Source: a virus (lineage: Duplodnaviria; Caudoviricetes). Taken from it: DNA of 53,296 nt. Made by a program: the position numbers and the translations under genes. Below, piece after piece: positions 27,201 through 53,296 of this stretch. Position 1 is the first letter of the stretch. Every line of letters begins with the position of its first letter. The DNA is taken from IMG/VR virus record IMGVR_UViG_3300025769_000158, positions 1-53,296 of that record; one strand, given 5' to 3'. The notes beneath the pieces are model-generated. The model saw only the letters and a list, made by a program, of their open reading frames with translations, did not search any database and was not told the DNA's origin.

Positions 27201-30200
27201 AATGTCTGATCTACTAGTGTTATCACGAAGGGTTGATGGCATAAACAAACGAATGACCTCCCATGTAATAGATTGCATCTCACGAGGAAGGATGCCTCTT
27301 TGTTTGGCCGCTTCAACATAAGCGTCAAGGTAGGCCCAATAGTTTCCTGACAATGCATTAACGGAAGACGACATGATACCCGCCCCTCCAAAGTTTTCAT
27401 TTACGGCGGCGCTTGATTGTCCGTAAGGCATAAGTTCTGCCGCGGCAACAGCATGGGTGTCCATAGTAACATCACCATCCGTAGCGTCTGGGTTAGCGAT
27501 GTTATTGTAGAAGTGTCTAATCTTATGGCTACCACCGAGCAGTTCACTGATCATAGCGATGTCGTTATTCTCAAACATCATCACAGCCTTCGCCATGTTA
27601 GAGAAACTTTGAGTGACTACCTTTCTAGGTGAACCATCCTTTGTAGTATATGTTCCTAGGTCATCACCAATAGGGCTATACACTTGTACAGTGTCAGGCA
27701 TGTAGACCTCTCTATAGTAGCGGATAAACTTGGCTTTCTCTAAAGCATCCATACTATTAAGAGTTCTTCCTCGAAGAGCATCCATGGAATCCTTGAAAGA
27801 ATCAAAAGCAACACGGTCTTTCTTCAATAGTTTTGAAGGGGTCATTTTCTTACCCTTCGCCTTCTTCTTGTAGACTTTGCTATTGGCTCCGGTTTGACGG
27901 AAGGACTCTAGTTTTCTTTCGATGGCCATGTTGTACATGGTGTCATCGAATGTAGACTCTTGATTGTTGAATAGAACCTCGGCAATGTTGTAGGCGTTTT
28001 GGATATTGATAAACCAATCCGCACCAGGAGATAGTGCCGCTAGTATACCCGCGGACTGCTCAACCGAAATGTCATACTTGCTGGACATGTCCTTGGCAAT
28101 CTTGTTCGCCCCATCATACCATCTACGCATGTACTCGCGAACCTCGGGATCGGCAAGATCGTGAAGGAATAATAGGTTAGAAACCACGCGATCCTTGAAT
28201 ATTTCGTACACTCCATCGGCCCATTCTTTTTGGCTTTGGAGTTTTACCGAACCTTTATCGATGGCGCTTTGTGGATTTAACACCACCATGTTTTGTACAA
28301 GGCGAGGGCTTTTAGTTTCGTCTGCTTGATTGTCCGCAAAAGACACAGCATCAAAACCCGCGGCCTCAAGAGCACTAAAGTATTTCTTACGCTCTTTCTT
28401 GTTAAGTATAAATGGAATATCCTCTAAAGGAATTTCTCTAGCCTCCGTACCTTCTATGTCTATCAACATAAAGAACATAGAATCACCTTGGGCATCGTAT
28501 TGAGCCATCTTTGCCGGGAACAGTTTCCTTGCCACCTCTAATGCTTTTTCTTCAGAGGCTACTCTTGACTCTTGAATATATACCGGGTTGAGTAGTTTGC
28601 TATCAACACTTTCTCCTGGGTCTTGAAGGCGTAGGTAATCCATCGCCTCTCCTTCCTCGGGAGAAATGTAAAGAGGTCTATCGTTAGAAATATCCTCAAG
28701 TCCATAACCACCATGGTAAGCAGTGACCATACCCTCTCTAGAGTAGTCCTCTTTAGGCATCTGATCAATGAAAGAAGGAACCTCTACATCAACCATCAAC
28801 GGGTGGTTTTTAGTATTTGTAAGAGCTACGGCGTGGTCTACATATATAGGTCTAACATTTTTGTTAGCCGCAGGTATCTCACGCACCGTTGCTGACGACA
28901 TATCAAATACATCTGTAGCAACCCCTCGGCTTTTCGCGATGCCTTGACCTACGCGTTTACCCGCAACGATACCTTCTTTAAGTTTGTCTATCGAGGCTTG
29001 ATTTAATGCGGCGCGACCATCTAACAATTCATTGCGTGACTGATCAATCTTCTCGGCTACTTTTTGTTGGAACAGTTTGTTATCTATCTCTGCATCGATA
29101 CCTTCTTCTAGGTTGACTAGGTGTTCACTCATGTAAGATAGGTAGTCGATACGTTGCAATGGATCAGCGATGTTGTCGGCATCAGCAAGTAGTTGATTCA
29201 TTGTTTTAGGAACACGCTTACCCGTAAGGTACCAAGTCACATCCGAACCAAAGTTTCTAGTGTATGCTTTGTATTCTTCTTGTTCAATATTAAATACTCT
29301 ATTTGATGGGCGTGCGCTAGGGTCTAAAGAGAACGTCTCTAGGTACGGCTCTACACTTGAACTGTTCTCATCCTTATCCAAGAAGGTTATTTCTTTTAGG
29401 CTAACCGCAGGTGCCTCGAGATCGATTAGGTCAAACATAATCTTTCTCATGCCCTCATCAAACTCAATCATACGCTCTCTATCCAAGAAGCTCTCGGCGT
29501 CAGCGATACTTTCAATCTCTGCCGGCTCAACACCATATGCATCTTTGTAAAGGGTACGAGCATACAAGATATCCCCAAGAGGCATCATTGATTTTCTAAT
29601 GAGTTCTTTTGCTACTTGGTTTGCTCTTTTCTTATCACCCGTGCTAGAAACAATATGGTTGTATATCTTAACAGCATCTAGGTAGGTGGCATGGTATATG
29701 TTATCATTGTAACTGCCCAAGCCAGGAATCCATCCTATGCTGTCCGGGTGCATATGCGTTCTATATAGCGCTCGGTATTCTTCACTGTCCAAGAAGCCGG
29801 TTGTATCTTCTCCCGTTCTACGAATCTCTGCGCCCTTCATATATGTTTCAAGCGCCTCTAGAGGCAAGCCTTTAACGGGAGCGTATGACATTGCTCCGGC
29901 CTCAATAATATCTTGATAGACATCGCTTTCATCTAGAAGTAAACTCTCATCGCCATCTAGATACTCATTGATATCATCTGCATATACATGTCCTTGGAGT
30001 TCTTCGTTTTCGTAAATACCTAGAAGTACCATGTCGTCACCTATAAGAATCATCGGTGCCTTTGTAACTCCTTGTATGAGCAGTTCTTTATGGATTCCGG
30101 AGATGTCGTTTAATACTTCTTCAGCAAGGAACTTATCTCCTCGTGTACCATCAATGCCTCCGGGGCGTCCGGTACCACCCGTTACGGTAGACCTTCTAAC

Positions 30201-33200: not shown

Positions 33201-34088
33201 TGGGTCAAACATATCCGCTTGACGCTTACTGATCATCGCTCTATTGTAAAAACGAACAAGGTCCTTTCCCACACCAGCCTCTTGACCCGGGGCATTCTCC
33301 TCATCAATCAACCAAAAGGAATATATATCTTCCCCGGGAGTTAGGTATCCTTCATATAATGTATTATGATTAGCAACCTTTAAACCAAGGTCTTCCGCGG
33401 CCTGATCAACATCCATGCCTTTATCCAACCAATAAGCCACATTGGTTGCTTCTTGAGCGGCACCCTCAAAGTCGATAACAGTCTTGTATCGCTCTTGATT
33501 CTCTATAGTGATACCCTCTTGTTCTAATGCTTGGGCAGTGTACTTGCCGTAGTCGTAGATATAGGTCTCATTAAATATTTGATTTAGAGGCTTCTTTTCT
33601 TCTTGAGAACGCTGCACCATTTGATTGGTAGCCTGCTCCGCCTTCTCATCACTATAACCTAAATACTTGTAGGTGTCGTATGCTTGTTGGTAAGATACGT
33701 TAGACATATCTTCAACCAACTTCTTTTGCTCTTCTTCAAATACCTTTTCTTCAAGAGCATTCTTTTTACCTACCGCGGACTCACCGCTATAATCATACCC
33801 TAGACCTCCAGCGTATTTCGAGTCTTCCGATTTTGAAAACCCAGTCTCTTCCACTGCTTGTTGATAAAGCTCTTGAGATGTAGGAAGTTGGATTTGCTCT
33901 TCTTTTTTTTTTACAAATTCAGAACGAAGTTGTTCCATAGCAGGCTCCATATCTACCATGGAGTAACCATTCATAATACCGGTACGAAAAACATTGTTCT
34001 CATACTTGGTTAATTCTTCTTGGGTCTCAAGGTTAAAATAATCATCACTAAATTGACCGCGTAGATATTCTAGAATTTCTTCGTTCAT
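24219..34088 (-). CDS. giant virion ejection / polyvalent protein (3,289 aa)
   Basis: Follows two smaller ejection-type genes. Holds zincin-like, ART-like and glycosylase-like motifs and a helical C-terminus (PFVKTPFNI, NVWGE). Confidence 0.75.
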   Translation of the reverse strand: MNEEILEYLRGQFSDDYFNLETQEELTKYENNVFRTGIMNGYSMVDMEPAMEQLRSEFVKKKEEQIQLPTSQELYQQAVEETGFSKSEDSKYAGGLGYDYSGESAVGKKNALEEKVFEEEQKKLVEDMSNVSYQQAYDTYKYLGYSDEKAEQATNQMVQRSQEEKKPLNQIFNETYIYDYGKYTAQALEQEGITIENQERYKTVIDFEGAAQEATNVAYWLDKGMDVDQAAEDLGLKVANHNTLYEGYLTPGEDIYSFWLIDEENAPGQEAGVGKDLVRFYNRAMISKRQADMFDPLIDTHEVDFTALAYYQKLLRENQAVSWDTDNGFLKGVDVVLSSVVSPVLESVAAMWAGMIDPVNIGVSVASGGTLAPVAFGREGLALEYSSKILEVFNELGLDTTNPEELLRATQDPEVMGEARERGLKKGIPIAIVDAVTARFGGAILKQFLKKGYSTTTSRLLTETVEGVAGSTGEALGQLTETGTIYDLKGIALEFIGQGIQTAPVQTYLAIKNKDISQAEADYIRFATMAEDAHELTTVATTMNYGEVTAIDQKIKEQRQAARKAKTRESRATHRENARKLQEQKYTTLNRNIETLQNLPENERARVAELSDNLVNHIAELRSFKKNEPGYKAKVEEIGRIYGEIKQIVNREPARETPLGTEVAPTVEVPVEGVAPTPVTKAPAPVTPTISESLNQQAVVKLPTGIVRGLVQVDEGGKVSIIEANGNITEIGNIEDIGDQTFEDAGFGTIESSLNEDGSFTIRGKQYTAPRGKKSVNFNDQGEVVSVTLKDAKGRNRTFRGDTAQEVAFLFSEPKSKQEDTRSLDEIIVDTNEELVGGPIEETTEEAVAEEAPVTPVEEAPTPPTEAAPKGPQPALRSRVKNILPRKGITERVAKTVNGLVKALSDNIGKDVNVVFWNNTEDLNAALGQEGLEAFYEFGTNTIHLTIDSSDAVIKEEFAHAGFGGIMSDDKVRGRLYSEVLDLAKKNSSLGVDVEAISAAYTAYGKSLGMSDAAIEAMVQEEVVMKVLAGYTTNLNQIDASLRGKLRRIINKALTAIGLKKLTITDDTSFTKLAETFAIATRLGKPIKQRVSQPYRTQPVSDGGRASILMLADILGLDAKTIKQLNLKGSGETFAFTSREYWERRQNYGEDIVYATEEEAIEAMGDIEDLNLLPDQWGEIDASVGMRLGAVEVFEIANQALEEDTEYNIETYVDWNTYKTETDLSIKGKKADGTPSSRNLRLPIVTGGFFMPRTAEGYTENWKEGKLQSSPKIDKLNPGESLQPRFFALMPDRGTTVRRSTVTGGTGRPGGIDGTRGDKFLAEEVLNDISGIHKELLIQGVTKAPMILIGDDMVLLGIYENEELQGHVYADDINEYLDGDESLLLDESDVYQDIIEAGAMSYAPVKGLPLEALETYMKGAEIRRTGEDTTGFLDSEEYRALYRTHMHPDSIGWIPGLGSYNDNIYHATYLDAVKIYNHIVSSTGDKKRANQVAKELIRKSMMPLGDILYARTLYKDAYGVEPAEIESIADAESFLDRERMIEFDEGMRKIMFDLIDLEAPAVSLKEITFLDKDENSSSVEPYLETFSLDPSARPSNRVFNIEQEEYKAYTRNFGSDVTWYLTGKRVPKTMNQLLADADNIADPLQRIDYLSYMSEHLVNLEEGIDAEIDNKLFQQKVAEKIDQSRNELLDGRAALNQASIDKLKEGIVAGKRVGQGIAKSRGVATDVFDMSSATVREIPAANKNVRPIYVDHAVALTNTKNHPLMVDVEVPSFIDQMPKEDYSREGMVTAYHGGYGLEDISNDRPLYISPEEGEAMDYLRLQDPGESVDSKLLNPVYIQESRVASEEKALEVARKLFPAKMAQYDAQGDSMFFMLIDIEGTEAREIPLEDIPFILNKKERKKYFSALEAAGFDAVSFADNQADETKSPRLVQNMVVLNPQSAIDKGSVKLQSQKEWADGVYEIFKDRVVSNLLFLHDLADPEVREYMRRWYDGANKIAKDMSSKYDISVEQSAGILAALSPGADWFINIQNAYNIAEVLFNNQESTFDDTMYNMAIERKLESFRQTGANSKVYKKKAKGKKMTPSKLLKKDRVAFDSFKDSMDALRGRTLNSMDALEKAKFIRYYREVYMPDTVQVYSPIGDDLGTYTTKDGSPRKVVTQSFSNMAKAVMMFENNDIAMISELLGGSHKIRHFYNNIANPDATDGDVTMDTHAVAAAELMPYGQSSAAVNENFGGAGIMSSSVNALSGNYWAYLDAYVEAAKQRGILPREMQSITWEVIRLFMPSTLRDNTSRSDIAKIYNDYKGEDIADVQNEIKKYFDEKDTDTDTPRGRNIKHPSWYRPTDSEGTATEGQVADEGQLAGGDLPSGTGAETGTPGGDGDATGRAALKMRKATEKFVDMLKGGVPQEVAFSESILNAARRAQKGRLKPGEEASEFFYEPQSIGDIQENLSGMSTAQVVATLNTNTLRDITSVSGGLDFNTDGNILVLAQVEYLERLRKEGDITGYKAELAKLTQMGTTFGQLLRQFGEIKGKTAEGMVALITNEYEQKGTPLKEDAIEDLTTIVEEYIAAKDAFDSNVDKVLDADPEEFDTLDKLVEESQKRLEDAIGALNDFQKFNAPTWGTLLSTIMQGNLLTLRSITTNVVANALTLPGRLIQQAIAAPIEYMINPRNRELRPSFGAMVYGAQRAFYGLKESMKAIKTGQAPGDFEYTSGHQLQPLVALATVFGRGKDSLPQEFHSQVDYINFKAKKLFEGIFGITASSNFKLLVLGDRPFYRGMEGYELYQQGKRLGLEGEELKRFLKYPTEQHFKIAREKGLKLTFQENDSTLLFGLVDTQQVQNIFNKAGAKALASDSYTTRMFGNAVKFLVKSNFPFVKTPFNILSQSLEITLFPITFAQAFSPGISARDRSEKLATAIMGYMLFLYARKLYDKGAVSGAVDKLSPKARSVAYEVEPPFTINVSALGREVGEPFQPSDRRIGFAKLGLYGAVMAAYVEAFKVIDRKPNFSTEEELVEYGIDEQSAISKFLEQGLGITLGSLGALLDQSFLTGLENMTKLLQNTEDVNVVSKYFEQLSRAMVAVPLPNLFTSFFRAEREFLPDYRDNSFDQRFMNVVYDRTFGVFGRGDDPAPIRINVWGEKINQTPPGTNPVFYEFLDPTGTRLATDDPLKVELYNLYKRTGDEDALPSIPSLILNKRMVIDKGSKPINFSTGEVNELLMLLGQQRTKDLSNTINTSLWKDATDEQKINILRKINGKYSTGYITLEDGNRKVFEWYKRRQEMINQKLNEKN

Positions 34089-36203: not shown

Positions 36204-39200
36204 TTATTTATTTGCAACACTTTGCACTCCCAAATTGCTGTGTAAAGTTTCGTTATTAAAGTGCATATTTACCGCAAACAATTCTATCTTATTACTAGAA
36301 TGTGAGCTTTGGAAATCTACCTTGCAATAGTAGTCTCTTAACTGATCGCCTTCCTCTTTCGCAGAAAGTGATAACACCACTATAGAGTTTACAGGTATAC
36401 TTGAGATTGAAGCACTTGCAGTAATCTTCTTTGATGTATCTACACTAGCAAGGTTTGCAGAAAGGCTTGTAAGCGTGCCCGCATTGTCGTAGTATAACGC
36501 TGCACCGATAGGGAGCGGTTGTGTATTCACCTTATTCTTAAATGTGATTTCCGTACCATTGGTTACCGCTGTAGCCGTCTCCCCAATAACAATATAATTT
36601 CCCGTCGAGTTTTGAGTATCTCTAGGAATAGAGGCTACAAACTCTCGCTCTCTTTCGTCGTAATCATTTACGGCAATAGTCGTTTGCTGATCGCTAGTTG
36701 AAAGCGTTGCGGACCACGCCTTGTTTCCTTCAATGCTAATAGTATCATATGATTTAACCGCACTAGCATCAAGGTTAGAGACAACCGAAAATTTAGCGGG
36801 GTAATTTACATTGTAGAATCGACCATATGTAGAATTTACCCCATGCTCCCACATCACTTGGGACTTATTATTATCAATACCATCCCCATAAAAAGAGAAA
36901 AACTTATCATTGATATTGCTATACAAGTTAGGCTTGAACGAATAAAAAGATGTCCACTGTTTCTTTTGATGGTCAAAGGCAACTGTAAACCCGGTATATG
37001 TAGATATGTCTTTTGATGTAATTACATATTCATCATTGTCGGGGTCATACCCAGCGACAATATCCATTTCAGTTTTATTAGAAACAATCAAGTACTCCGA
37101 AAACTTTGAATCAAAATAAGAGTCCATGTTGTTGTCGCTAATAGGATAGATACCATCTCTTGATATACGTAATACCTTTTGCGCTTTAACATCTACATAG
37201 TACATAATACCAAACCGCTCAACGATTGCCGCGGGGTATCCACTCGAACCAAAGTCACCGGCGTAGTATGAGGCAGTACCTAATACATTACTACTAACTA
37301 CAACATTACCATCCGTAAGTGTTTGGAGCAGTTGTCTATTTACTTGGGCGAATCCTACCTTGTGCTCTTGGAATATGTATAGCCTATCCGTCTGATCTAT
37401 TAGTCGATCAATTTTTCCATGACGTATATCATAGTCAACAAAGTTTGCTGTAGATACATTGAAAGAAGAAAGACTCAACTTGTCTCCATCAATGACGTAT
37501 GGATCAGAATAAGTAATACTAGCTCTTCGCCTTACTTCCCTAGCATCATCTAAAATAGCATGAGGTCGGCCACGGCTTGTATAGTCGGAATTAAAGAAGT
37601 CGCTATATGCATTTGATTCAACATATAAAACATCGTATTCATATCCGTCATAGTCGTCTTCATCATATTTACTAGCGCCACTATCAAATGGAGCAGATAG
37701 GATTTCTCTAGGTTTAAAGTATACGTCACCATCCTCAAGGATTACCACAGGAAACCCACCATCGGTAGTGTCACCAACGTGTGCTCCAGATACGATGTCG
37801 TACACCTCTCCTATTTCGTGGTAGACAATATCATTATTAACCTTTTTAGGAGACGCTATCTCTACAATAACTCTTTGGCCCCATTTGTCACTTCCCGCAA
37901 CAACGTCCGCAAGGCTCCAGTCGTCCAATGGCTTATTGCCATAGTCTTCATCTCTAATAACAACAAAGGTCGACTTACGAGGAGGAGTTACTTCAGCCGC
38001 AGTGGTCACTACTTCCTTACCTATGACAGCAAATTCATAACCATCGATATACTGACGTGTCTCGTTATCATCATAGTATGATACAATCCTTAATATATCA
38101 TTCTCACTATAGGTATAGTCAATGTTTGCTCCCCTATCGTTTACATATGAATTAGGCTTACCTTCTAATGGGAAGAGGTCTAGATAGATACTGTTCTGAC
38201 CCTCGTTGGTACTAGCGTCTGCAGTAAGTTTATGAGCACCACCAACACCAAACTGCAAAAAGTCGGTGTATGTTTCATTGCCTGCATATACAATTTGATA
38301 TTTCGTAGCCCATGAAGGTGGGTTGTGCTTAATCTTTAGATGTATCCTTACTCGTCCCTTATTTGTTGAACGGCTAGGATCAGCATAACCACCTACATAT
38401 ACGCCGTCAATCTTTTGAACGAATGAAGACCTTCCTTTATCATCGTAATACACAATGCCAAAACTGTGTATGGCGCTAGTTTTAAAACTAGTAATACCCG
38501 CTTCATAAGCATATTGTATATTGATAGGTAGGGTCATGTTGGTATGTAGAACATACTCAATATTTGCTGGGGGTATGCTTGTCGCTACCGTTGCGTTAGG
38601 GTCGTTAAATAAAGTTCCATTGACCGTAATCATACGCCAACCCGTAAGAGTGTTTAAATGAACCTTGGTTTGTAGGGTGACAATATCAAGGTCGATCTTG
38701 CGCTTTGATGTAACCGAATAAGCGGTGTCCTGATCAAAGTCAATCTCTATGCTAGGGAAATCTAACCCCATCTCTACCGGGTCACCCGGGTCATGGTTAT
38801 GGCCCGTGCCGTCCGATGTAATTACATATCCTGTGGCGTTGAAGTTAACTCCGTTATTTACATAGGAATAAGATATATTCTCCTCGGCATCTAGTTGGGA
38901 TGCTAACTCATCAAGTATCTCGTCCCTAGTCATAGTAACCGAAGGCACCACAGTTGCAGATAAGACTACTTGTCTATTGTAAAAAGGAACATCGACGTAT
39001 GAACCTACATCATTTGTTTTACCAACCCCCGCTGTAAAACTATGGGAACCGTCATCAAAACTCTCGCTAAATAAATAGGCCTCAACTTCAGCCTGCCTAG
39101 AAAGCCTAAACGCACCCGAAGGACCACCGGTTAATGTAACGCGCAGGGTTATGATAGCACCATCATTGTATGTCGAGGCCATAGAGGTCCCATCAATAAC

Positions 39201-40358
39201 TATATGACTAGGTCCCCCATTAGGTTGTTCTAGTGTTGCAGTGATTACCCCAGGGTCTTCTACAGTATCGTAGACTACCGATGAATCTACATTTATTGAG
39301 ATGTTGTTAAAGCCTTCAGTGTAATCGCCATACATAAGACGGTTGCCTGATATCGATTGGGCGTTGGCCTTGAGTGGGACATTGTCATATATCTTATCGA
39401 CTTCGGTAGTAGATACCGCTGGGTAGGAGCCATCATTAAAAAATGTAAATGTGCCAGTCGCAGTAGATGGATTATCAACCTCCCCTATCTTATAAAAAAC
39501 TGTAGAGCCACCTAGACGAGAAAGTATACGCACCTTCTTAACTTCACTGTCCCCACTTGTGAATGTTAGCGTAAGCTTGTTATTTAGTGTTTGAAAGGAA
39601 GTGTTTACCACACCCTCACCATACGTATTGGGATTGATTGCTAGTTTAGAATAAGTACTAATAGCACTGTTCTCCCCATCTTGATATATATATTGATAAG
39701 CAAATTGAAAAGACTTGTCAATAAGGTTGTTTTGCAAGTAGTTGGTGTCGGTAGAATACTCAAAGGTTATAGGCTCGAGCGGTGGTGATTTACATACCTC
39801 TAAAAATTCTTTACGCTCGTCATCGCTATAGTAGTTCAATCCGTCAGGATCAGCCCATATATCACTTTTATCCGCAATTGCTCTATCAACATTTATCTTT
39901 CTTGGAGGATTAAATCCGTCAGTAAAGTACACCAAGGTTTCATCCTTGTCGTTGAATACAACATTAGCCTCTATGAAGGTGTTGTCTTGAAAGTTTAATA
40001 CACTACTTTGAAATATACGCTCATAGTTTCGTGATTCAACATCGTACTTATAGATAGTGTCTACACCGGCTAGTTGAGCGTTAGAGGTCACATGAACAAA
40101 AAAGATTATCTGTTGCTTCTTTGCAATAGATACTTGACCAAGAACTTGGTATACATCGGAGTCTATTTCAAAGGGCAGTTCATCGTTTATGTTTGCAGCG
40201 AGTACCGCTTGATTTCCCTTGATAGTTTTCAATATACCAGCATCGCCGTCATCGTCCGAGGAGATGCGGATATTCTCTGCATTGGTCATCTCAACAGCCT
40301 TGACGAGTCTTTCATCGTCGGACTTATTGAGGTATTGTGGTACAATCTTGTTTATCAT
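36204..40358 (-). CDS. tail muzzle/stabilization protein (crAss-like)
   Basis: 1,384 aa; LNKSDDER, FTDGFNPPRKIN, FAYQYIYQDGENSA, GNRLMYGDY, WTSFYSF. Confidence 0.85.
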   Translation of the reverse strand: MINKIVPQYLNKSDDERLVKAVEMTNAENIRISSDDDGDAGILKTIKGNQAVLAANINDELPFEIDSDVYQVLGQVSIAKKQQIIFFVHVTSNAQLAGVDTIYKYDVESRNYERIFQSSVLNFQDNTFIEANVVFNDKDETLVYFTDGFNPPRKINVDRAIADKSDIWADPDGLNYYSDDERKEFLEVCKSPPLEPITFEYSTDTNYLQNNLIDKSFQFAYQYIYQDGENSAISTYSKLAINPNTYGEGVVNTSFQTLNNKLTLTFTSGDSEVKKVRILSRLGGSTVFYKIGEVDNPSTATGTFTFFNDGSYPAVSTTEVDKIYDNVPLKANAQSISGNRLMYGDYTEGFNNISINVDSSVVYDTVEDPGVITATLEQPNGGPSHIVIDGTSMASTYNDGAIITLRVTLTGGPSGAFRLSRQAEVEAYLFSESFDDGSHSFTAGVGKTNDVGSYVDVPFYNRQVVLSATVVPSVTMTRDEILDELASQLDAEENISYSYVNNGVNFNATGYVITSDGTGHNHDPGDPVEMGLDFPSIEIDFDQDTAYSVTSKRKIDLDIVTLQTKVHLNTLTGWRMITVNGTLFNDPNATVATSIPPANIEYVLHTNMTLPINIQYAYEAGITSFKTSAIHSFGIVYYDDKGRSSFVQKIDGVYVGGYADPSRSTNKGRVRIHLKIKHNPPSWATKYQIVYAGNETYTDFLQFGVGGAHKLTADASTNEGQNSIYLDLFPLEGKPNSYVNDRGANIDYTYSENDILRIVSYYDDNETRQYIDGYEFAVIGKEVVTTAAEVTPPRKSTFVVIRDEDYGNKPLDDWSLADVVAGSDKWGQRVIVEIASPKKVNNDIVYHEIGEVYDIVSGAHVGDTTDGGFPVVILEDGDVYFKPREILSAPFDSGASKYDEDDYDGYEYDVLYVESNAYSDFFNSDYTSRGRPHAILDDAREVRRRASITYSDPYVIDGDKLSLSSFNVSTANFVDYDIRHGKIDRLIDQTDRLYIFQEHKVGFAQVNRQLLQTLTDGNVVVSSNVLGTASYYAGDFGSSGYPAAIVERFGIMYYVDVKAQKVLRISRDGIYPISDNNMDSYFDSKFSEYLIVSNKTEMDIVAGYDPDNDEYVITSKDISTYTGFTVAFDHQKKQWTSFYSFKPNLYSNINDKFFSFYGDGIDNNKSQVMWEHGVNSTYGRFYNVNYPAKFSVVSNLDASAVKSYDTISIEGNKAWSATLSTSDQQTTIAVNDYDEREREFVASIPRDTQNSTGNYIVIGETATAVTNGTEITFKNKVNTQPLPIGAALYYDNAGTLTSLSANLASVDTSKKITASASISSIPVNSIVVLSLSAKEEGDQLRDYYCKVDFQSSHSSNKIELFAVNMHFNNETLHSNLGVQSVANK

Positions 40359-45946: not shown

Positions 45947-45983
45947 AAAAAGAAGAGGGGCTTGCGCCCCTCTTTTTATTTTT
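45947..45983. terminator. bidirectional intrinsic terminator
   Basis: aagaggggc-ttgc-gcccctctt flanked by A- and T-runs between convergent genes. Confidence 0.85.
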
Positions 45984-46830
45984 CGTCTCCTTCACCGTAT
46001 TTTCTTCGCCACTCATCAACAGCAGCCATACGAGCGTCTTGGTATACACCTTTTTGTTTTGCCATCTCGACGACCTCATCATACGAACCCATGCCCATAT
46101 TGTTGCCATCGGTAACGGCGTATTTACCTCCAACACCGGCCTTACGTAATGCCTCCATAAGGTAGCTTTTGGTAATCATCTCTAGGTCTTTTAAGGCTTC
46201 GGATTTCTTTTTAGGATCGTCATCAACCATCCCCCCGTCTTCGTATTTAGAGAGTAGGCTCTTTGCCATCTCACGTTGTTTCGGGTCATCTAGCAATGCT
46301 TTTAACATACCACCGCTAGCATACATTTCTTTCATTGAGCCACCCTTACCGTATTCGGTCATGCCTCCTTTGGAATATTTTACTTTCATTTTACCTCCGT
46401 TTTCAAATCTTTTATTTCGTTTTCCTTTTTTGTTTTCTCTTGACGCAGCCTCTTCTCTCATGCGTTGCACATCTGGGTCATCATCAAATGGATCAGAACC
46501 ACCAAACATGCTAGAGCCAAATTCACTGTCAAACGAATCCATTAGACTTGGTGCTTTCACTTCCTTAAGAGCTGGGTCTACAGAATAAGAATCCATAGCC
46601 TCATTGCTTTTGTGAGCTTTAGCATTAAGGAACTTCTCAACTTGTTCCGCTCTTTGAAATAAGTCTAGGTCTGGAAACTCTTTTACCAAGTACTCATCAA
46701 AAGCGATTAAGCGATCAGCCTCTTCACCCATGAAATGCATATCGCCTATCTTATAGGTAGACCTACTTTCTGGTGAAGTCTTTGGTGGATCGACTGGGCT
46801 TTTACCTCCCTTGTTGTATTTTACTTTCAT
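45976..46830 (-). CDS. protein with repeated (Y/F)xxGG motifs; putative internal head protein
   Basis: YNKGG, FENGG, YSKGG, YGKGG, YASGG, YEDGG. Confidence 0.65.
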   Translation of the reverse strand: MKVKYNKGGKSPVDPPKTSPESRSTYKIGDMHFMGEEADRLIAFDEYLVKEFPDLDLFQRAEQVEKFLNAKAHKSNEAMDSYSVDPALKEVKAPSLMDSFDSEFGSSMFGGSDPFDDDPDVQRMREEAASRENKKGKRNKRFENGGKMKVKYSKGGMTEYGKGGSMKEMYASGGMLKALLDDPKQREMAKSLLSKYEDGGMVDDDPKKKSEALKDLEMITKSYLMEALRKAGVGGKYAVTDGNNMGMGSYDEVVEMAKQKGVYQDARMAAVDEWRRKYGEGDEK

Positions 46831-47260: not shown

Positions 47261-47290
47261 TAAAACCGCCCCTATTGGAGCGGTCTCTTT
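47261..47290 (-). terminator. probable terminator hairpin
   Basis: accgcccc-tatt-ggagcggt with an A-run on plus. Confidence 0.55.
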
Positions 47291-47460
47291 TACTTGTGTG
47301 TTGTAATTGTCTTGAAAGGCATTTCTAGTGCTGCTCCTTCGTGAGGTTTAAATTTACCCTCATGAGGCATAAGGTAATATCGACCTTTCTGATTCATCCA
47401 ATGGTAGCCACTTGGGGCCTTTACCATTATTTCGTTTTTGTTTTTTCTTTTTACTTTCAT
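47290..47460 (-). CDS. hypothetical protein
   Basis: MKVK...APSGYHWM...LMPHEGKFKPH. Confidence 0.6.
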   Translation of the reverse strand: MKVKRKNKNEIMVKAPSGYHWMNQKGRYYLMPHEGKFKPHEGAALEMPFKTITTHK

Positions 47461-47511
47461 GACACTTACAATTACCACAAGGGCATTCTACCGGTTCTAT
47501 TTCACACCACA

Positions 47512-47659: not shown

Positions 47660-47842
47660 CTACTTGCCTTTCACAGCGTCTACAACGTCCTTGACTTCCT
47701 TTACAGTCTTCTTGTAGCGAGACTGTGCTTCTCTCAAGGCCGCTATAATTTTTTCATCAGCTTCGGTGTAGCCAAACCAATAAGCCCAAAATCTTTTGTG
47801 TGTCTCCTTAATCCAGAGCCAAAGTACTTTCAAGTGTTTCAT
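47660..47842 (-). CDS. hypothetical protein
   Basis: 60 aa, Trp-rich amphipathic N-terminus. Confidence 0.6.
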   Translation of the reverse strand: MKHLKVLWLWIKETHKRFWAYWFGYTEADEKIIAALREAQSRYKKTVKEVKDVVDAVKGK

Positions 47843-47843
47843 C

Positions 47844-48170
47844 TTACTTTTCTTTCATGAAGTTTAGGATGCTGTCCTTACGCTTTTCCTTTAAAGCCTG
47901 TTCATTATCTCGGAACAACACAAATGCAAATATAAGCAATGCTATGATAATAGCGAAGAAGGAGGGCACCATCCAATATTGCAAATTATGAGACAATCCG
48001 TCAAAGTCTTGTGTTTTAGCAATATCGTAATCCGCATCCTTATGTACCCATACAGACTCCCAACCCTCCTCGGTACTATAATGATAGTCAACTACTACAC
48101 TGTCTCTATACACAGCATAGTGAGCTTTGACGCTATCGTAGTTCCAATCAGCTTGTTTTTTCTGTGGCAT
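47844..48170 (-). CDS. single-TM membrane protein
   Basis: TM segment WMVPSFFAIIIALLIFAFVLF. Confidence 0.55.
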   Translation of the reverse strand: MPQKKQADWNYDSVKAHYAVYRDSVVVDYHYSTEEGWESVWVHKDADYDIAKTQDFDGLSHNLQYWMVPSFFAIIIALLIFAFVLFRDNEQALKEKRKDSILNFMKEK

Positions 48171-48717
48171 ACTTCACACCCATTATTGTACCTATAATAC
48201 TAAAACTGTTCGTTAGTAAGATACCAAAAAGATTGCTCCAGGCATTACCTAGTATTGTGGTGTCCTTGTCGGCAAGGATTGCTGTGGTATACATCAAAGT
48301 TGTAGTGACGCCAACTCCTATAATTATGATCAGGGCAACCCTTACGATTAAACCTATAAGTTCAAACTGCGTTCTTTTTTGTAGAAGGTCGAGGTCTTCA
48401 ACGGCTTCATCACGAAGTTTCTCTGCTTCCGCTTTAGCATTCTTCGTTTCTTCCAAAGAGTTTTGCAACTCAATAACAAGAGCCTCCTTAATTACAGAGG
48501 CCTCCTCTAGTTCTTTGTTTTGCTTTTGAACTTGCTTGGTAACATCAAGACGTCTACGCCGGGCTTTAGCATCACGGTCCTTGCATTCCTCTAGGTATTC
48601 CTTGACATCGGTAGGTAAAGACTTCGATAATATCTTTACAAAGTTTCCTTCTATGTAAACCTTTTTAGATTTTGCTTTACGCAAAGCCTCCTCTACCGTG
48701 TCCTTACCATTTATCAT
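48148..48717 (-). CDS. coiled-coil protein with two C-terminal TM helices; putative output partner of the two-component system
   Basis: Long heptad region, then LIGLIVRVALIIIIGVGV and LFGILLTNSFSIIGTIMGV; ATGA overlap with the receiver gene. Confidence 0.7.
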   Translation of the reverse strand: MINGKDTVEEALRKAKSKKVYIEGNFVKILSKSLPTDVKEYLEECKDRDAKARRRRLDVTKQVQKQNKELEEASVIKEALVIELQNSLEETKNAKAEAEKLRDEAVEDLDLLQKRTQFELIGLIVRVALIIIIGVGVTTTLMYTTAILADKDTTILGNAWSNLFGILLTNSFSIIGTIMGVKYATEKTS

Positions 48718-49151
48718 TTGTATACCTTAAACGGGGCAGTTTTGTTTTTATAGCCCTCATAGTCTTTTAAGAATTCTTCTAGTCGAGGTTCGATCTCGTC
48801 ACTCTTAATAATCCAAAATTGAGCGCCCACATCTTTAGCCTTGTCTATTTCTTGGTTGTCGTCCGAGGAAGATATGATTCCGATAACCACGCCATTACCG
48901 TAGTCGGTATTAATCTTACGGATCAGTTCAATCCCATCAAAGCTAGACCCTATAATGTTAAGGTCTACAAAAACACATTTAGGTCTTTCTTCTATCGGAC
49001 CATCTTCAAACCACTTCTTAAATAAACGATCAGCCTCATCAGAAGAGTTTAATGCTTCTAATGACAATGTCATGTCAAGAAGGCTGCATGCATCTTCAAA
49101 TACGAGGTGGAAGAGGTCTTCGTCGTCTACGAGTAGTATAGAGTCTATCAT
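48714..49151 (-). CDS. single-domain (CheY-like) response regulator receiver
   Basis: ILLVDDE acidic pocket, FVDLN phospho-Asp, DGIEL, IISSS, conserved Lys in IIKS; no output domain. Confidence 0.92.
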   Translation of the reverse strand: MIDSILLVDDEDLFHLVFEDACSLLDMTLSLEALNSSDEADRLFKKWFEDGPIEERPKCVFVDLNIIGSSFDGIELIRKINTDYGNGVVIGIISSSDDNQEIDKAKDVGAQFWIIKSDEIEPRLEEFLKDYEGYKNKTAPFKVYK

Positions 49152-50380
49152 TTTAATTCTATCGTTATTTTAGTTCCTTGTTCTATTTTACGAGCGGAGA
49201 TTTCAAATCCGTGTTCTTTAATTATGGCAACACATATGTTTAGTCCTAACCCGGTGCCTTTCTCTTCTTGCTTGCCCCTTGTGTAGGGTTGAGAGTATTC
49301 TTCAAAATCTTCTTGGCTCATGCCGCGACCATTGTCTTCAATGACAATAGACTGCTCATCCCCCATATAGATGGAAACCTTTTTTGTATGACTGTCGTTA
49401 TACTTAAGGCCATTACGGATCAGGTTGTCAACGGCAGTACAGAACAACGCTTCGTTTATTTCATAATCTATTAAATCCTTTATCTCTACCTGGCTTATAT
49501 AAGATGTAGATGAAAGATAGTTAATCAATACTTCTTTTAGGTTGAGGACCTCTTTTTCTAATTGAGTGTCTTTCTTTACCAGGTTGGTAAACTCCTTAAC
49601 CCCTTTATATACTTTTTGAGTATGTATAAGCCCCTCTTGAATCATCTTTAAAGGAGGACCTATCTTTAGTTTTTTTATGTCTTCTTCTTTTAGCCTACGC
49701 TTTAAAGAACTCAATCCCCTAGGTATGTATGTGTTGATGCCACTGTGCATGTCGTGACGAAGTATCTTTGCGGCATGCTCTAGATATCCATTCTTCTTAT
49801 GGATTTCCATCTCAATGATCTTCTTATCGGTAATGTCAGAGGCAATCTTAAGTATCCGGTATACTTCCCCATATGGATTCTTGATAGGGTTGTAGTTCCC
49901 ATATATCCAAAACTCGGTATAGTTCTTCCCCATCCTTTTGAACTCCCCTGATCTAGCATAACCCTTTTTTAGTTTTAACCAAAAGTCCTTGTAGTAAGCC
50001 TCGTTTAAATCAAGAGGGGTAAGCATCTTGTGATTCTTTCCTATGAGTTCATTCATAGTATATCCCGACATCTCACAGAACTTATCGTTACACGATATGA
50101 TTTTTCCATCAAGATCAAACTCTACAAGAGCATTGGACATATTTATTGCAGAGAGGGTATCGTCAATAGATTGAAACTTATAGCGGACCTTACGAACAAA
50201 CTCTACAAGCACAAAAAAAAAGAAGGGCATAAAGGAGATTACACTAACCCATCCAAACACAGCACTGTCGTAAGTAACCTCGGAATATCCGATAACTAGA
50301 GCAGTTTGGTATGCGAAGAAAACAAGCATGATTCCTATCGCAAGAACTATAGATATCCTAGAGGCTATTGATAGTTTCAT
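49148..50380 (-). CDS. membrane-bound PAS/PAC sensor histidine kinase
   Basis: Two N-terminal TMs; PAS (NDKFCEMSGY...ELIGKNH) + PAC (DIT); H-box LRHDMHS; N-box NLIRNGLKYN; G1 EDNGRGM; G2 GTGLGL. ATG at 50380. Confidence 0.93.
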   Translation of the reverse strand: MKLSIASRISIVLAIGIMLVFFAYQTALVIGYSEVTYDSAVFGWVSVISFMPFFFFVLVEFVRKVRYKFQSIDDTLSAINMSNALVEFDLDGKIISCNDKFCEMSGYTMNELIGKNHKMLTPLDLNEAYYKDFWLKLKKGYARSGEFKRMGKNYTEFWIYGNYNPIKNPYGEVYRILKIASDITDKKIIEMEIHKKNGYLEHAAKILRHDMHSGINTYIPRGLSSLKRRLKEEDIKKLKIGPPLKMIQEGLIHTQKVYKGVKEFTNLVKKDTQLEKEVLNLKEVLINYLSSTSYISQVEIKDLIDYEINEALFCTAVDNLIRNGLKYNDSHTKKVSIYMGDEQSIVIEDNGRGMSQEDFEEYSQPYTRGKQEEKGTGLGLNICVAIIKEHGFEISARKIEQGTKITIELK

Positions 50381-50535
50381 TTTTCCTTTTTCTTGCCCAA
50401 CAGGTACCACCTTTGTATGGTGTAACCTATTGAAACTATTAGTAGAAATATCTTTAAGTAAAGTTCTACTTGAGACATAGACACACTAAATGTGACTGCG
50501 TTTAGAGCATATACTTTCAAATCTTCGTGCGTCAT
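50377..50535 (-). CDS. small holin-like membrane protein (52 aa), not in the ORF track
   Basis: MTHEDLKVYALNAVTFSVSMSQVELYLKIFLLIVSIGYTIQRWYLLGKKKEK; ATGA overlaps with both neighbours. Confidence 0.7.
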   Translation of the reverse strand: MTHEDLKVYALNAVTFSVSMSQVELYLKIFLLIVSIGYTIQRWYLLGKKKEK

Positions 50536-51413
50536 TTTTTCAACTTGTTATAGGCTTCCATATCTCTTTCAAAAGAAGACTTACGCTTTTGGGCGTCTTT
50601 CTCCGAGCCTGCCCAATGATATTTTAGCCAATAGTCCGTAAGAGACATTTCATCGTTTAGATACTTCCCTAGATCAGCGGATGGATGCGCTAGTTGATTC
50701 ATAAGGAAGAGGTACTTTTGTTTTTCTAGGTCTACTTGACTAGCGTCAAAAGACTTTTCAGGATAGTATTGTTTAACCCACTCCGGGGTTTTGTATTCAG
50801 CAAGTTCCGGGAAGGCTGTTTCTTTTCCTTCGGTGATGTTGTAAGCCCTATTGATTGCTATGATACCACCGCCCCCTGGTTGAGATTCAAATTGGAAGGC
50901 ACCTCTACCGGGTCCTCCTCCCATTTGTTTTTTGGCGGGGTCACTCTTGCTTTCGTGATACATGATTTTATTCATCATGTCTTCAAGCTTTTCTACTGAT
51001 CCCCCCTTCTTTGAAACGATGTACTCGAGCAGTTCTTGGTAGGTCAACTCTTCTCCCGGAGGAGGAACCGATCCGCCATCCTCATACTTCTTTACCTTTT
51101 GAGATTTAGGTGGAGATTTTTTACTTCCTCCTTTTCCTGCCCAAAAGAATTTATCAGCCCAGTATGCGGCAGACATTTTTCCTTTTTTAATATTCTTTCC
51201 GTGGCGAGCTTTAAATGATTTGCGAGCGGCATCCGAATAATTATGCCCCATCTTCTGATCGCCAAATCGGATGATACGAACCTTATTGCCCTCCTTTGCT
51301 AGAACCATCCCTTTCTTTGTTGGGTGGTTAGGCGTTCGCTTGGGTTTGTTAACCCCTTTAAGACCGTGCTTTTTGAGCAGTCGCTTGATTCTATCTCTCA
51401 ACTTACTATCCAT
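50532..51413 (-). CDS. basic N-terminal domain fused to a lysozyme/transglycosylase-like domain
   Basis: N-terminal KPKRTPNHPTKK...IIRFGDQ...SAAYWA; linker YEDGG; C-terminal HES...Q.GGGPGRGAFQFE. Confidence 0.6.
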   Translation of the reverse strand: MDSKLRDRIKRLLKKHGLKGVNKPKRTPNHPTKKGMVLAKEGNKVRIIRFGDQKMGHNYSDAARKSFKARHGKNIKKGKMSAAYWADKFFWAGKGGSKKSPPKSQKVKKYEDGGSVPPPGEELTYQELLEYIVSKKGGSVEKLEDMMNKIMYHESKSDPAKKQMGGGPGRGAFQFESQPGGGGIIAINRAYNITEGKETAFPELAEYKTPEWVKQYYPEKSFDASQVDLEKQKYLFLMNQLAHPSADLGKYLNDEMSLTDYWLKYHWAGSEKDAQKRKSSFERDMEAYNKLKK

Positions 51414-51417
51414 TGCA

Positions 51418-51455
51418 CAAATATAAAAAGAAAGGGGTCACGTTTTGTGACCCCT
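51418..51455 (-). terminator. intrinsic terminator followed by a TATATTTG promoter
   Basis: aggggtcac-gtttt-gtgacccct (51433-51455); caaatata at 51418-51425. Confidence 0.8.
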
Positions 51456-51552: not shown

Positions 51553-51771
51553 TTACATTATCTCCTCGGGGAACCAATCCGCCCCAAGCGTTTCTAATTC
51601 TGTTAACTCTGCAATGTAGTCATCGTGCTTTAACATTGCGAAGTCTACCCCGTTAGGGTGTTCTATAACTTGTGCCCAATCGGTTGTATATACTCCGTCA
51701 TAGTTCTCACCCCAAAACACCTTCTTGTTGTAGGCTTCTAAATCCGCTTTGTTTGTGCTTGTGTAGTACAT
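51553..51771 (-). CDS. small protein paralogous to 20..238
   Basis: Same motifs and the same TAATG coupling to its RBP gene. Confidence 0.7.
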   Translation of the reverse strand: MYYTSTNKADLEAYNKKVFWGENYDGVYTTDWAQVIEHPNGVDFAMLKHDDYIAELTELETLGADWFPEEIM

Positions 51772-53296
51772 TAGTAGATAGAGTAAAAGTCATTGATGTT
51801 TGTTTCTATGCCCGTGCGGTTGGTATTTTGGTCGCTTCCGTACATTACAATTTCTTGAATTGTTCCATCAAAACAATAGTTAGTAAAACTTTGGTAGATG
51901 CCGATGTAAAAATTAGCATTAGTATTTGCCATTCCCGTTATAGTGCTTCCAATAGTGTCTCCTAATGTAGATGCTACTCCATTTTTGAACATTGAAAAAC
52001 CATTAACATTCTCGCTTCCATCATAAAATGCAGACATTAACAAATAGTCTAACTGTCCCGTATCTTTATTGTCTTTAGATATTTGATTATTACCTCCGTT
52101 TTCTTTTACAAAGAATCTTAAATCAGTATCAAAATATCCTAAAGCATATTCACGATTTGGTGCACCATCATCTTTTGCAAGCAACATAGAATTTGTTCGG
52201 TTATTGTGATACGCAGTAAATATGTTCAATGGAGTGTCGTTGCCCGCACCATCAGTAAAAGATAAAGAATCAGAATCTGGTGCGACCAATCTATGTGAAC
52301 TACCATTAAAAGACAATACCGGTTTAATTCCTTCTAAAATAGTAGAACCACTTGAAACAATCTGTGGTTGGTTTGCCGCAGTCGTTTGCGTAGCATCATT
52401 TCCATTCCCGCTTTGGTCGTACCAAGTATGGACAAATCCATCCGTACCGCTACAAAAAGATTCAAGTGTTGTAGTATCTAATTCCCCATTAGCAAGGAAT
52501 CCAATATCTTGCAATGCTTGGTCACTATCTCTGCGCACTTTGATAGCACTACCATTATAAGAGCCTCTTAACTTACGTAATGAATAAGCCGCTGCTGCAT
52601 TTGGATAGTCGTCTAACAATCCAATAAATGCTGCTGGCTGAATCTGCCCCGTACTTACACTATTAGCAGTCGCAGTACCTAAAATGTTTTCTTCGGTCTG
52701 CTGAACACGGATGTACTTGTCCTCATCTAATGAGCCAAGTAAATAAGTTGTGCCCGTTGCTCCCGCAATATCAGCCCAGCCCGTAGTGCCGTTATCGCTT
52801 CGTTGCCATTGCAGTACTTGCGTTGGCGTAGGTTCTCCCGATACATTGCCAGCGGTTGCCGTGAGGGTTTCCCCAACATTTAGCGTCCCCGAAATAGTCG
52901 GTAGTGTTGTGATAACAGGCTTGAAGGAATCTGGTGGGATAGCGGCTAATGTACCCGTGTTGCCCACTACAATTCTGTAAGCTGTATTGTTCTCTGAACG
53001 TAAGATGATACCCTTGCTAGGGTCCTTCACCTCAATGTCTCCCTCGGTGTTTATTCTAAACCTTTCTATAGGCGCACCCGTACCATCATTCAAGTAGAAC
53101 ACTAGGTCCGCTTTGGTTGAGCCAAGCGTCCCTGTGTACTCTGGGCGGATATCCACCATATTGATAAGATACTCACCACTAACGATAAGCTCCAACTCAC
53201 TAGCCACACATTCCTCGCTACCCTCAATTGTACCACCGTCAGCTGTTACCCTCTCGCTGAAGTCAGCAAAGATTGCACGTGCTAGGTCTAGGGCTA
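51771..53296 (-). CDS. second receptor-binding/tail-fibre protein (Ig-like + ConA/LamG-like); frame open to the window end, about 513 aa if joined to 16..1
   Basis: PTISG...G.TLT...QWQRS...IAGATG.TY Ig-like repeat; AAAAYSLRKL...WYDQSGNG; same C-terminus as 238..1212. Confidence 0.75.
   Translation of the reverse strand, partial: ALDLARAIFADFSERVTADGGTIEGSEECVASELELIVSGEYLINMVDIRPEYTGTLGSTKADLVFYLNDGTGAPIERFRINTEGDIEVKDPSKGIILRSENNTAYRIVVGNTGTLAAIPPDSFKPVITTLPTISGTLNVGETLTATAGNVSGEPTPTQVLQWQRSDNGTTGWADIAGATGTTYLLGSLDEDKYIRVQQTEENILGTATANSVSTGQIQPAAFIGLLDDYPNAAAAYSLRKLRGSYNGSAIKVRRDSDQALQDIGFLANGELDTTTLESFCSGTDGFVHTWYDQSGNGNDATQTTAANQPQIVSSGSTILEGIKPVLSFNGSSHRLVAPDSDSLSFTDGAGNDTPLNIFTAYHNNRTNSMLLAKDDGAPNREYALGYFDTDLRFFVKENGGNNQISKDNKDTGQLDYLLMSAFYDGSENVNGFSMFKNGVASTLGDTIGSTITGMANTNANFYIGIYQSFTNYCFDGTIQEIVMYGSDQNTNRTGIETNINDFYSIY

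Follow-up and report, generated by a model that had tools for sequence, protein, structure and literature searches.

The window analyzed here is the whole of IMG/VR virus record IMGVR_UViG_3300025769_000158 (53,296 bases, estimated to be 90% complete), from an uncultured freshwater phage. On its minus strand, genes for a histidine kinase with a PAS domain (HK), a regulator that consists of a receiver only (RR), and a coiled-coil protein with two transmembrane (TM) segments (CC) follow one another. An initial annotation of the window had grouped these genes with the two that precede them, which encode a lysozyme-like fusion protein (p293) and a holin-like protein (p52), as a five-gene signaling system. 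The five minus-strand open reading frames (ORFs) are indeed chained by ATGA overlaps at the coordinates first given for them, but conservation is confined to the trio HK-RR-CC, of which p293 is not a part, and p52 is variable. We consider it very likely that the kinase and receiver are a functional pair maintained by phages, and comparison of sequences indicates that the trio is a widespread, mobile, phage-specific signaling module without a cultivated representative. At slightly less than even confidence, we favor the view that HK-RR-CC is a self-contained phage-borne relay to a membrane effector, most likely tuning lysis.

Conservation and distribution of the trio

A scan of IMG/VR with the kinase matched at least 636 stretches, at least 625 of which were confirmed, and 80 loci (kinase 55-83% identical to that of the window) were kept. 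RR follows HK in 79/80 of these loci and CC is present in 72/80, with every absence falling at a contig end. For the wider kinase family, a HMMER search of 1.84 billion representatives brought up longer forms, and two of these, used in turn as queries, were again found on viral contigs, which gave 40 further loci; RR and CC (CC 40-68% identical) follow the kinase in 37 of them, and the three exceptions end at a contig edge. After pooling and de-duplication, the trio is found in the order HK, RR, CC in 75 of 83 viral or metagenome loci, and the remaining eight stop at a contig end, 0-4 nt from the last gene seen. The HK/RR and RR/CC junctions are mostly 4-nt overlaps across the loci, and the flanks differ widely: contigs that carry the trio include some of ~50-70 kb and others of 248, 321, and 322 kb, and the genes around it are not the same in these. 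Conservation of the three-gene order in viral databases, which the initial annotation had singled out for examination, thus extends across very different phages, and what they carry is a phage-borne, apparently cognate kinase/receiver pair with CC as its constant companion.

Synonymous differences between the window and its relatives are saturated in every comparison (pS 0.74-0.95), whereas the median proportions of nonsynonymous differences (pN) are 0.10 for RR (range ~0.05-0.10), 0.27 for HK, and 0.33 for CC; we report pN and pS because saturated synonymous sites preclude dN/dS for most pairs. The initial annotation had noted that a recently captured bacterial locus would lack conserved phage synteny or purifying selection, and what we find is conserved synteny and strong purifying selection. 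RR is conserved more strongly than HK or CC (93 of 145 columns invariant in 14 sequences; 79-93% identical to the window protein in the 80 loci and 68-92% in the 40 further loci), and HK identity falls to 45-68% in distant members. The sensors differ between members of the family, being TM-only, two TM segments plus PAS, GAF plus PAS, two PAS domains, a periplasmic domain of ~215 residues plus PAS, or a soluble PAS. In two loci (L119:6920-8392 and L082:6287-7510) a second kinase gene lies between that of the first kinase and RR, so two inputs may converge there on one receiver. One of these second kinases has TPR repeats and a TM segment; the other, with a predicted periplasmic sensor, starts with a signal-peptide-like stretch and has a single TM segment.

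The components of the trio are abundant in metagenomes. At E ≤ 0.001 we obtained 3865 clusters (90% identity) for RR and 4818 for CC; among the best 120 clusters of each, contigs reach about 80 kb at most, and the only names are "CheY-like," "NarL/FixJ family response regulator," and "hypothetical." Neither RR nor CC had a match in 50,697 GenBank phage records, where the kinase matched only via its PAS domain and comparison at the DNA level gave only two matches of ~70 nt, both within p293. Among 185,579 prokaryote species (one genome each), relatives of RR were found in only two contigs, both from metagenome-assembled genomes (MAGs), in a scan that used patterns from window-specific peptides and can miss variants. 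In one of them (L082) the trio lies beside phage-like genes, next to a type II topoisomerase-like gene. In the other (L083, labeled Alphaproteobacteria) the matches to HK, RR, and CC between 7000 and 9000 are broken over several frames; either the copy has decayed or the assembly is rich in errors.

The window phage itself resembles, on sequence, the flavobacterial podoviruses: its portal is ~29-33% identical to those of Cellulophaga phages phi38:1 and phi40:1 and of the Flavobacterium "elemo" podoviruses. A large terminase is encoded as well, along with several families labeled "virion structural" that occur in Cellulophaga phages. The contig of one relative carries a protein with a type IX secretion system (T9SS) sorting domain, which together with the relatives of the portal points to Bacteroidota hosts. 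A replication block lies on the plus strand of the window, and no integrase was seen among its annotated genes. The unit containing the trio lies in the minus-strand structural block, between tail-fiber-like genes and capsid genes, a location inside structural genes that fits late expression.

An observation that touches on the spread of the module is that five relatives (L003, L005, L008, L009, and L063) have an HNH/endonuclease VII-like gene (phrog_3322, 9.8e-23) just upstream of p52, ~0.5 kb ahead of the p52-HK pair. A homing endonuclease beside the module could aid its transfer between phages.

Kinase and receiver

The kinase has 410 residues if its start is placed at the ATG giving MKLSIA that is used by relatives, not at the GTG at 50410. 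Pfam matches were to HATPase_c (3.9e-17; residues 323-420 of the 420-residue ORF) and PAS_3 (2.3e-13). The layout is that of a two-TM anchor with an outer loop of ~12 residues, a cytoplasmic PAS domain (~88-195), a DHp domain bearing H209, and a CA domain with N, G1, and G2 boxes; because the TM segments lie only ~12 residues apart, the window kinase has no real periplasmic sensor. The DHp domain is divergent, a variant specific to this family.

The initial annotation had judged the catalytic motifs of both proteins to be intact, and none of these residues is missing from the window or varies in 14 diverse relatives; they comprise the H-box H209-D-M-H-S-G, N319/N323, D349-N-G-R-G353, and G375-x-G-L-G-L380 of HK and D9 D10, D63, S94-96, and K116 of RR. 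Nearly all of HK residues 196-229 are also invariant in these relatives, and the H-box (...YLEHAAKILRHDMHSGINTYIPRG...) is found in 29 of 30 representatives checked, whose kinases range from 285 to 840 residues. The consensus of the histidine kinase H-box is H-E-L-R-T-P-L, which the H209-D-M-H-S-G-I of the window parallels. Alignment with HK853 begins at HK residue 244 (DHp helix 2), so H209 is at the expected distance, and H209-H212 fall near the phospho-histidine of HK853. When the kinase is divided into parts, the median identity to relatives is 85% for the DHp, 62% for the CA domain, 57% for the TM anchor, and 52% for the PAS domain, which is the least conserved.

The PAS motif N98..F101...SGY...ELIG.NH117 is present in HK and had been likened to redox sensors of the Aer/NifL type. 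This resemblance holds, as the nearest solved PAS domains are the flavin-binding ones of MmoS (3ewk, 5.8e-23) and Aer (8dik, 1.5e-14; 31cj, 2.1e-12), and the NifL model TIGR02938 matches at 2.8e-10, which is below the cut-off of that model. In the PAS domain of Aer, which binds flavin adenine dinucleotide (FAD), the stretch ...HNMVRHPDMP... aligns with ...HKMLTPLDLN... in HK, so that TPLDLN stands opposite the RHPDMP of Aer. Because this segment differs and varies within the family, flavin is at most a possible cofactor. LOV-type sensing was considered and rejected, as LOV entries rank below the FAD-PAS entries and the LOV cysteine motif is absent from the HK PAS. The further suggestion that the phage may sense host redox state does not extend to the family: no part of the kinase varies more than the PAS domain, and some members have GAF, a periplasmic domain, or no sensor at all, so redox state is not an input that the family shares.

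RR (145 residues) is a receiver without an output domain, as first described, with a Pfam Response_reg match of E 1.1e-7. It is annotated by the Joint Genome Institute (JGI) as a CheY-like protein. Its closest solved relative, and the only PDB receiver matched at E ≤ 0.001 by a 14-sequence RR profile, is 3ilh (E 6.3e-5), a stand-alone receiver of 146 residues from a Bacteroidota bacterium.

The coiled-coil membrane protein

A hydropathy scan identified two TM segments in HK, one in p52, and two at the C-terminus of CC. The 189 residues of CC comprise a small N-terminal helical part, a long coiled-coil helix that is continuous with TM1, and then TM2. The AlphaFold2 model is of a single long helix (residues 36-148) running into a TM hairpin (pLDDT, the model's confidence measure, 76). 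TM2 (WSNLFGILLTNSFSIIGTIMGVK) and the cytoplasmic juxtamembrane segment are nearly invariant. By sequence the best PDB match of CC had an E-value of 0.33, and neither Foldseek against the PDB nor a comparison with named Atlas clusters gave anything usable; in PADLOC, CC gave only coiled-coil noise (E ~0.003), beyond which no component matched a defense model.

We propose that CC is the output, or effector, of the relay. CC is retained in a locus (L085) where the kinase has no TM segment, which argues that CC acts downstream of the kinase and not as a membrane co-sensor. Whether CC is the target of the receiver is, in our estimation, an even call. A predicted complex of RR with residues 1-122 of CC scored 0.04 (mark 0.32), which speaks neither for nor against binding.

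Lysis genes near the trio

In 35 of the 83 loci, a gene no more than 3 kb from the trio is recognizable as that of a holin or an endolysin. The families concerned are Phage_holin_4_1 (16 loci), phrog_33083 (12), DUF5675 (7), GH19 (4), Peptidase_M15 (2), and Phage_lysozyme (1), and the occurrence of six unrelated lysis families in different orders points to a repeated association of the trio with lysis genes. The Phage_holin_4_1 proteins (1.2e-8; also phrog_199, "holin") are encoded upstream of the trio, and in L022 the gene overlaps the start of the kinase by 4 nt, which is the slot held by p52 in the window. The endolysin-like family phrog_33083 (1.2e-12) is found three to four genes downstream of CC. 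Endolysins of the PG_binding_1+GH19 type adjoin the kinase in L088 and L109, and in L084 the genes directly upstream of the kinase encode a two-TM protein of 72 residues, a Phage_lysozyme protein (2.5e-44), and a Peptidase_M15_3 protein (2.3e-22). In L007 a DUF5675 gene, 80% identical to that of the window, is directly upstream of p52-HK. The available part of a recent preprint describes DUF5675 as a C82-peptidase-like lysin domain (bioRxiv 10.64898/2026.04.11.717860). The window DUF5675 protein is the likely endolysin of this phage, although by sequence it had no PDB match below E 0.26; it forms a probable lysis pair with a protein of 152 residues that has a soluble N-terminus and two C-terminal TM segments (Table 1). 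The link to lysis drawn in the initial annotation finds support in relatives, where bona fide holin and endolysin families flank the trio, but not in the window, where the DUF5675 gene is far off.

Spanin-like genes also occur with the trio, in the L028-L056 class, in L085, and in L006/L013/L075. They include a protein of 138-162 residues that resembles a unimolecular spanin in starting with a lipobox-like stretch and ending with a TM segment, and in L085 a TM protein and a lipoprotein-like protein of 86 residues form a pair directly upstream of the TM-less kinase.

Proposed role of the trio and alternative explanations

It is the presence of a holin or endolysin within 3 kb in 35 of the 83 loci that leads us to read the trio as a post-translational phosphorelay tuning lysis. 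The membrane-anchored kinase would read a cytoplasmic or membrane cue via an exchangeable sensor, here the flavin-PAS-like domain, and autophosphorylate on H209, from which the phosphoryl group would pass to D63 of the stand-alone RR. As RR has neither a DNA-binding nor an enzymatic domain, it must act by protein contact, and phosphorylated RR (RR~P) would contact the cytoplasmic coiled coil of its ever-present companion CC. The invariant TM hairpin of CC would then alter a late membrane event and shift the time of holin firing, so that lysis would be delayed or advanced according to host state. With the DHp domain and RR frozen as a pair, the relay would stay separate from host systems even as one input takes the place of another. 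We infer the phosphotransfer, the contact between RR and CC, and lysis as the output; that the process controlled is lysis timing seems to us possible, if somewhat short of an even chance. A bolder version, which we regard as speculative and rather doubtful, is that of a plug-in lysis-decision module in which interchangeable sensors feed the frozen phosphotransfer interface and a receiver gating CC, and CC perturbs the membrane (e.g., its potential) and triggers or holds back whichever holin the phage carries, the module having spread by horizontal transfer among uncultivated aquatic phages (~50 to >300 kb), probably of Bacteroidota.

Several observations weigh against a relay that tunes lysis. 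The window has no recognized holin or endolysin within 3 kb of the trio, its DUF5675 candidate being 24 kb away, and is one of 48 among the 83 loci with no recognizable lysis gene inside 3 kb; these 48 include L113-L118, which are 165-322 kb long and have full flanks. The loci are related by descent and thus the 35 are not 35 independent events; moreover, accessory genes and membrane genes are often clustered in phages, and a shared function does not follow from adjacency by itself. Searches of Pfam, PHROGs, PADLOC, the PDB, and the Atlas placed CC in no family, of holins or otherwise, and as a paralog of the phage's own two-TM holin candidate it was rejected (hhalign probability 1.8%). On the signaling side, no HisKA model in Pfam matched HK at E ≤ 0.01, the Response_reg score of RR (32.4 bits) is only 2 bits above the Pfam cut-off (30.2), and a six-frame first-look search of the record with PF00072 missed RR, which we read as a filter miss. 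Lastly, conservation as extreme as that of RR is also what one would expect if its target were a host protein that is itself conserved.

That last point leads to the main rival, that the real target of RR is a conserved host protein. RR~P would bind, for example, a host two-component, secretion/gliding, or metabolic regulator and thereby reprogram the cell, and CC would only anchor or scaffold the relay at the membrane. An unchanging target would fit a module in which RR is the most conserved gene (72-93% identity) while HK drops to 45-68% identity in distant members, and the closeness of RR to the Bacteroidota receiver 3ilh and the T9SS sorting-domain protein on the contig of one relative, which points to Bacteroidota hosts, agree with it. 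However, CC is as constant as RR in every locus that reaches far enough, its invariant juxtamembrane segment and TM2 exceed the needs of an anchor, the unit lies among late structural genes and in many relatives near lysis genes instead of among early takeover genes, and no host partner was identified; we regard host-directed signaling as rather unlikely. The same late-block position would be unusual for genes of superinfection exclusion or membrane defense, in which the relay would sense a second infection or envelope stress and CC would block DNA entry or abort infection. An anchored kinase with almost no outer loop amid small membrane proteins such as p52, p108, and their counterparts could report envelope perturbation, and T4 is the textbook example of superinfection sensing coupled to lysis inhibition. 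The available part of a preprint on N4 also proposes cytoplasmic regulation of its pinholin (PMC12642591). Yet the PADLOC search gave no defense match beyond coiled-coil noise (E ~0.003), and the cytoplasmic PAS/GAF sensors of most members point to intracellular cues, making exclusion quite improbable.

The two remaining explanations concern the extent and the origin of the unit. If the lysozyme-like p293 and holin-like p52 were the effectors under relay control, the ATGA overlaps that link p293 to p52 and p52 to HK, the lysozyme-like C-terminal fold of p293 with its invariant glutamate, and the Phage_holin_4_1 protein that occupies the p52 slot in L022 would be accounted for. But the p293 family is in only 9 of 81 loci (mostly as its ~97-residue part) and that of p52 in 25 of 81, p52 evolves fast (median pN 0.29), and the crAss cargo fusions and DNA-pilot match of p293 described below fit a virion-borne entry enzyme; such a five-gene system is improbable. 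That the trio is a recently captured bacterial passenger locus with no phage-specific role is suggested by two-component systems being bacterial inventions and by the JGI label of RR as simply a CheY-like protein. It is very hard to reconcile with relatives of RR in just two MAG contigs of 185,579 species genomes against at least 625 viral stretches with the kinase, with 3865 RR and 4818 CC clusters whose best 120 each lie on contigs of up to about 80 kb, and with saturated synonymous sites alongside conserved proteins and gene order, and we consider it very improbable. On balance we retain the phage-borne relay from HK through RR to CC, with lysis as the output we favor.

The transcription unit and its accessory genes

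The features of the unit and the probable lysis pair are given in Table 1.

Table 1. Features of the window that bear on the trio and on lysis.
Feature	Position	Strand	Remarks
Probable lysis pair	23307-24232	minus	152-residue protein (23774-24232), then DUF5675 protein (23307-23774)
Terminator-like hairpin, 11 pairs	47262-47287	minus	closes the unit, after the small ORF 47290-47478
Small ORF	47290-47478		near the end of the unit, before the closing hairpin
p60, small helical protein	47660-47842	minus	ORF list
p108, single-TM protein	47844-48170	minus	ORF list
CC, coiled-coil two-TM protein	48148-48717	minus	ORF list
RR, receiver-only regulator	48714-49151	minus	ORF list
HK, PAS histidine kinase	49148-50380	minus	ORF list
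p52	50377-50535	minus	ORF list
p293	50532-51413	minus	ORF list
Promoter-like box TATATTTG	51418-51425	minus	5 nt upstream of the p293 ATG
Terminator-like hairpin, 9 pairs (6 GC) and T run	51433-51455	minus	terminates p72, the gene upstream, and sets the unit apart

ATGA overlaps were read in the sequence at four junctions (p293/p52, p52/HK, HK/RR, and RR/CC), and the chain runs beyond the five genes, as p108 overlaps CC by 23 nt and p60 begins 1 nt after p108. The p108 family is in 32 of 81 loci (the 80 and the window) and diverges fast; p60 has no relatives among the 80 loci. The promoter-like box fits TAnnTTTG, the consensus of the Bacteroidetes -7 box. TAnnTTTG is not enriched across the window (52 sites vs. 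45.4 expected), and a sigma-70 scan, with 12 sites vs. 18.6 in shuffles, is uninformative on promoters. The octamer TATATTTG also occurs 21-25 nt upstream of the minus-strand starts at 3974, 9559, 41943, and 45444, and related TAnnTTTG boxes lie 5 nt ahead of the starts at 47243 and 46830; these two fixed spacings between box and start may mark leaderless vs. leadered late transcripts.

The first gene of the unit had been called muramidase-like. In p293 an N-terminal phrog_7595 domain (residues 10-91) is modeled as disordered, and the AlphaFold2 model is confident only at ~120-293. VIA-align matched this C-terminal domain to phiKZ gp144 (Z 6.4, root-mean-square deviation [rmsd] 4.2, 129 aligned), a phage lytic transglycosidase (Z 6.3), and lambda lysozyme (Z 6.2, rmsd 3.7, 113 aligned), values that are below the tool's caution line of 8; by title, the first 15 matches were lytic transglycosylases, phage lysozymes, GH19 chitinases, and a chitosanase, and MltE was among the matches. 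Neither E154 (in HES) nor GRGAFQFE varies among the 14 sequences compared. Foldseek gave no match for p293 at E ≤ 0.001 and Pfam no SLT match; an Atlas look-alike cluster (score 0.89), in which 15% of members have SLT, is a lead only. Two relatives (P0251 and P0254) have the C-terminal domain fused with crAss_CARG1 (crAss cargo protein 1), and the N-terminal domain aligns with a portion of a family annotated as "minor head protein and DNA pilot," findings that fit a virion-borne entry enzyme. The muramidase-like description is a fair one, but the cargo-domain fusions speak against an endolysin, and p293 is probably a virion cargo or wall-degrading entry enzyme. Its family, where present in the 81 loci, is mostly represented by the N-terminal protein of ~97 residues only.

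A side observation on p293 is the sequence KKYEDGGSV at its domain boundary, with similar GG-rich tails in those of its relatives that have the crAss cargo domain. Repeated [KE]Y-x-x-GG motifs (KYNKGG, KYSKGG, EYGKGG, MYASGG, and KYEDGG) are found in p284 (45976-46830, minus strand), and they could be a signal for cargo packaging or protease processing.

The protein p52 (52 residues) is translationally coupled to the kinase and has one hydrophobic TM segment and a basic C-terminus (GKKKEK). No match to it was found in Pfam, PHROGs, or NCBIfam. In the window it has no adjoining endolysin; in L006, L013, and L075 the order is DUF5675, a small TM protein, p52, HK. Its size, TM segment, and charged C-terminus agree with the initial holin-like description, but it is not a conserved part of the module, as other small membrane proteins take its slot in the loci that lack its family. 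It is plausible that p52 is a holin, an antiholin, or a small modulator of the kinase.

Other features of the window

A virion protein of 1384 residues (36204-40358, minus strand) matches the Crassvirus muzzle domains crAss_MUZ (8.5e-27) and crAss_MUZ_C (2.6e-14). With the portal nearest to those of Cellulophaga and Flavobacterium podoviruses, this suggests a crAss-like tail organization in a flavobacterial phage lineage. A single ORF of 3289 residues (24219-34088, minus strand) lies in the late block, immediately upstream of the probable lysis pair, and its sole family match is to DUF7178/phrog_3842 at approximately residues 1965-2100. Two paralogous fiber-like proteins (phrog_10356, with an ArabFuran-catal-like segment) are encoded at the two ends of the record (238-1212 and 51771-53296, both minus strand), each followed by an ORF of 72 residues, and this looks like a tandem duplication across the record ends, consistent with a permuted genome. 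On the plus strand (18376-20192), the gene for a C-5 cytosine DNA methylase (2.8e-66) precedes one for a PAPS-reductase-like protein (phrog_424), and the two may be a DNA-modification pair.

Significance and comparison with known systems

Our full-text literature search, whose coverage left out most subscription journals, yielded no description of the HK-RR-CC trio; the phage kinases that it did bring up lacked a paired receiver. The usual view is that a holin clock sets the time of phage lysis, and the known exceptions involve superinfection sensing (T4, N4) or small-molecule communication. If the proposed role is true, the trio would be the first phosphorelay-controlled lysis timer, and if the relay is maintained, many environmental phages would read the physiological state of the host and respond post-translationally. 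The components of the trio span thousands of metagenome protein clusters and have apparently moved among very different phage backbones with swapped sensors. With its nearly invariant kinase-receiver interface the trio may represent an orthogonal and compact signaling cassette, and CC a new family of membrane proteins without known relatives.

The closest analogy, in function only, is with LytSR-Cid/Lrg. LytSR of Staphylococcus and Bacillus is a kinase/regulator pair controlling the holin/antiholin-like Cid/Lrg; both it and the trio link such a pair to small membrane proteins, those of LytSR governing murein-hydrolase access and lysis, and both would sense membrane or energy state. They differ in that LytR is a DNA-binding LytTR protein acting on transcription, LytS is a multi-TM (5TM-Lyt) kinase, and the system is chromosomal, whereas the trio has a receiver-only RR and a kinase with two TM segments and PAS, is phage-borne, and has no Cid/Lrg family match. 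With single-domain regulators such as CheY and Rcp1, or those like 3ilh, RR shares a receiver that would act alone by protein contacts; however, RR is very divergent and is not partnered with a flagellar switch or with a phytochrome kinase.

A signal-dependent delay of holin triggering, as we propose for the trio, has precedents in phages. In T4 lysis inhibition the holin T is held by the antiholin RI. In the part of the N4 preprint available to us, the pinholin gp63 has a regulator, gp62, and the regulatory region and the regulator face the cytoplasm (PMC12642591). Neither system is known to have a phosphorelay, and we found no sequence similarity of either to the trio. The "Receiver domain" named in the N4 preprint was considered as a CheY-like domain and rejected, since in the text available it names part of the pinholin and is unrelated (PMC12642591).

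Histidine kinases have been found in other phage genomes. The AgrC of Clostridioides difficile phage phiCDHM1 is described, in the portion of the article available, as having no phage-encoded regulator, its signal being thought to reach that of the host (PMC4124054). The kinase of uncultivated pelagiphages sits with curli (type VIII secretion system) genes, and the accessible portion of that article mentions no paired receiver (PMC9599517). Unlike these kinases, as far as those portions describe them, the kinase reported here has its receiver and membrane partner encoded by the same phage, and the three move together.

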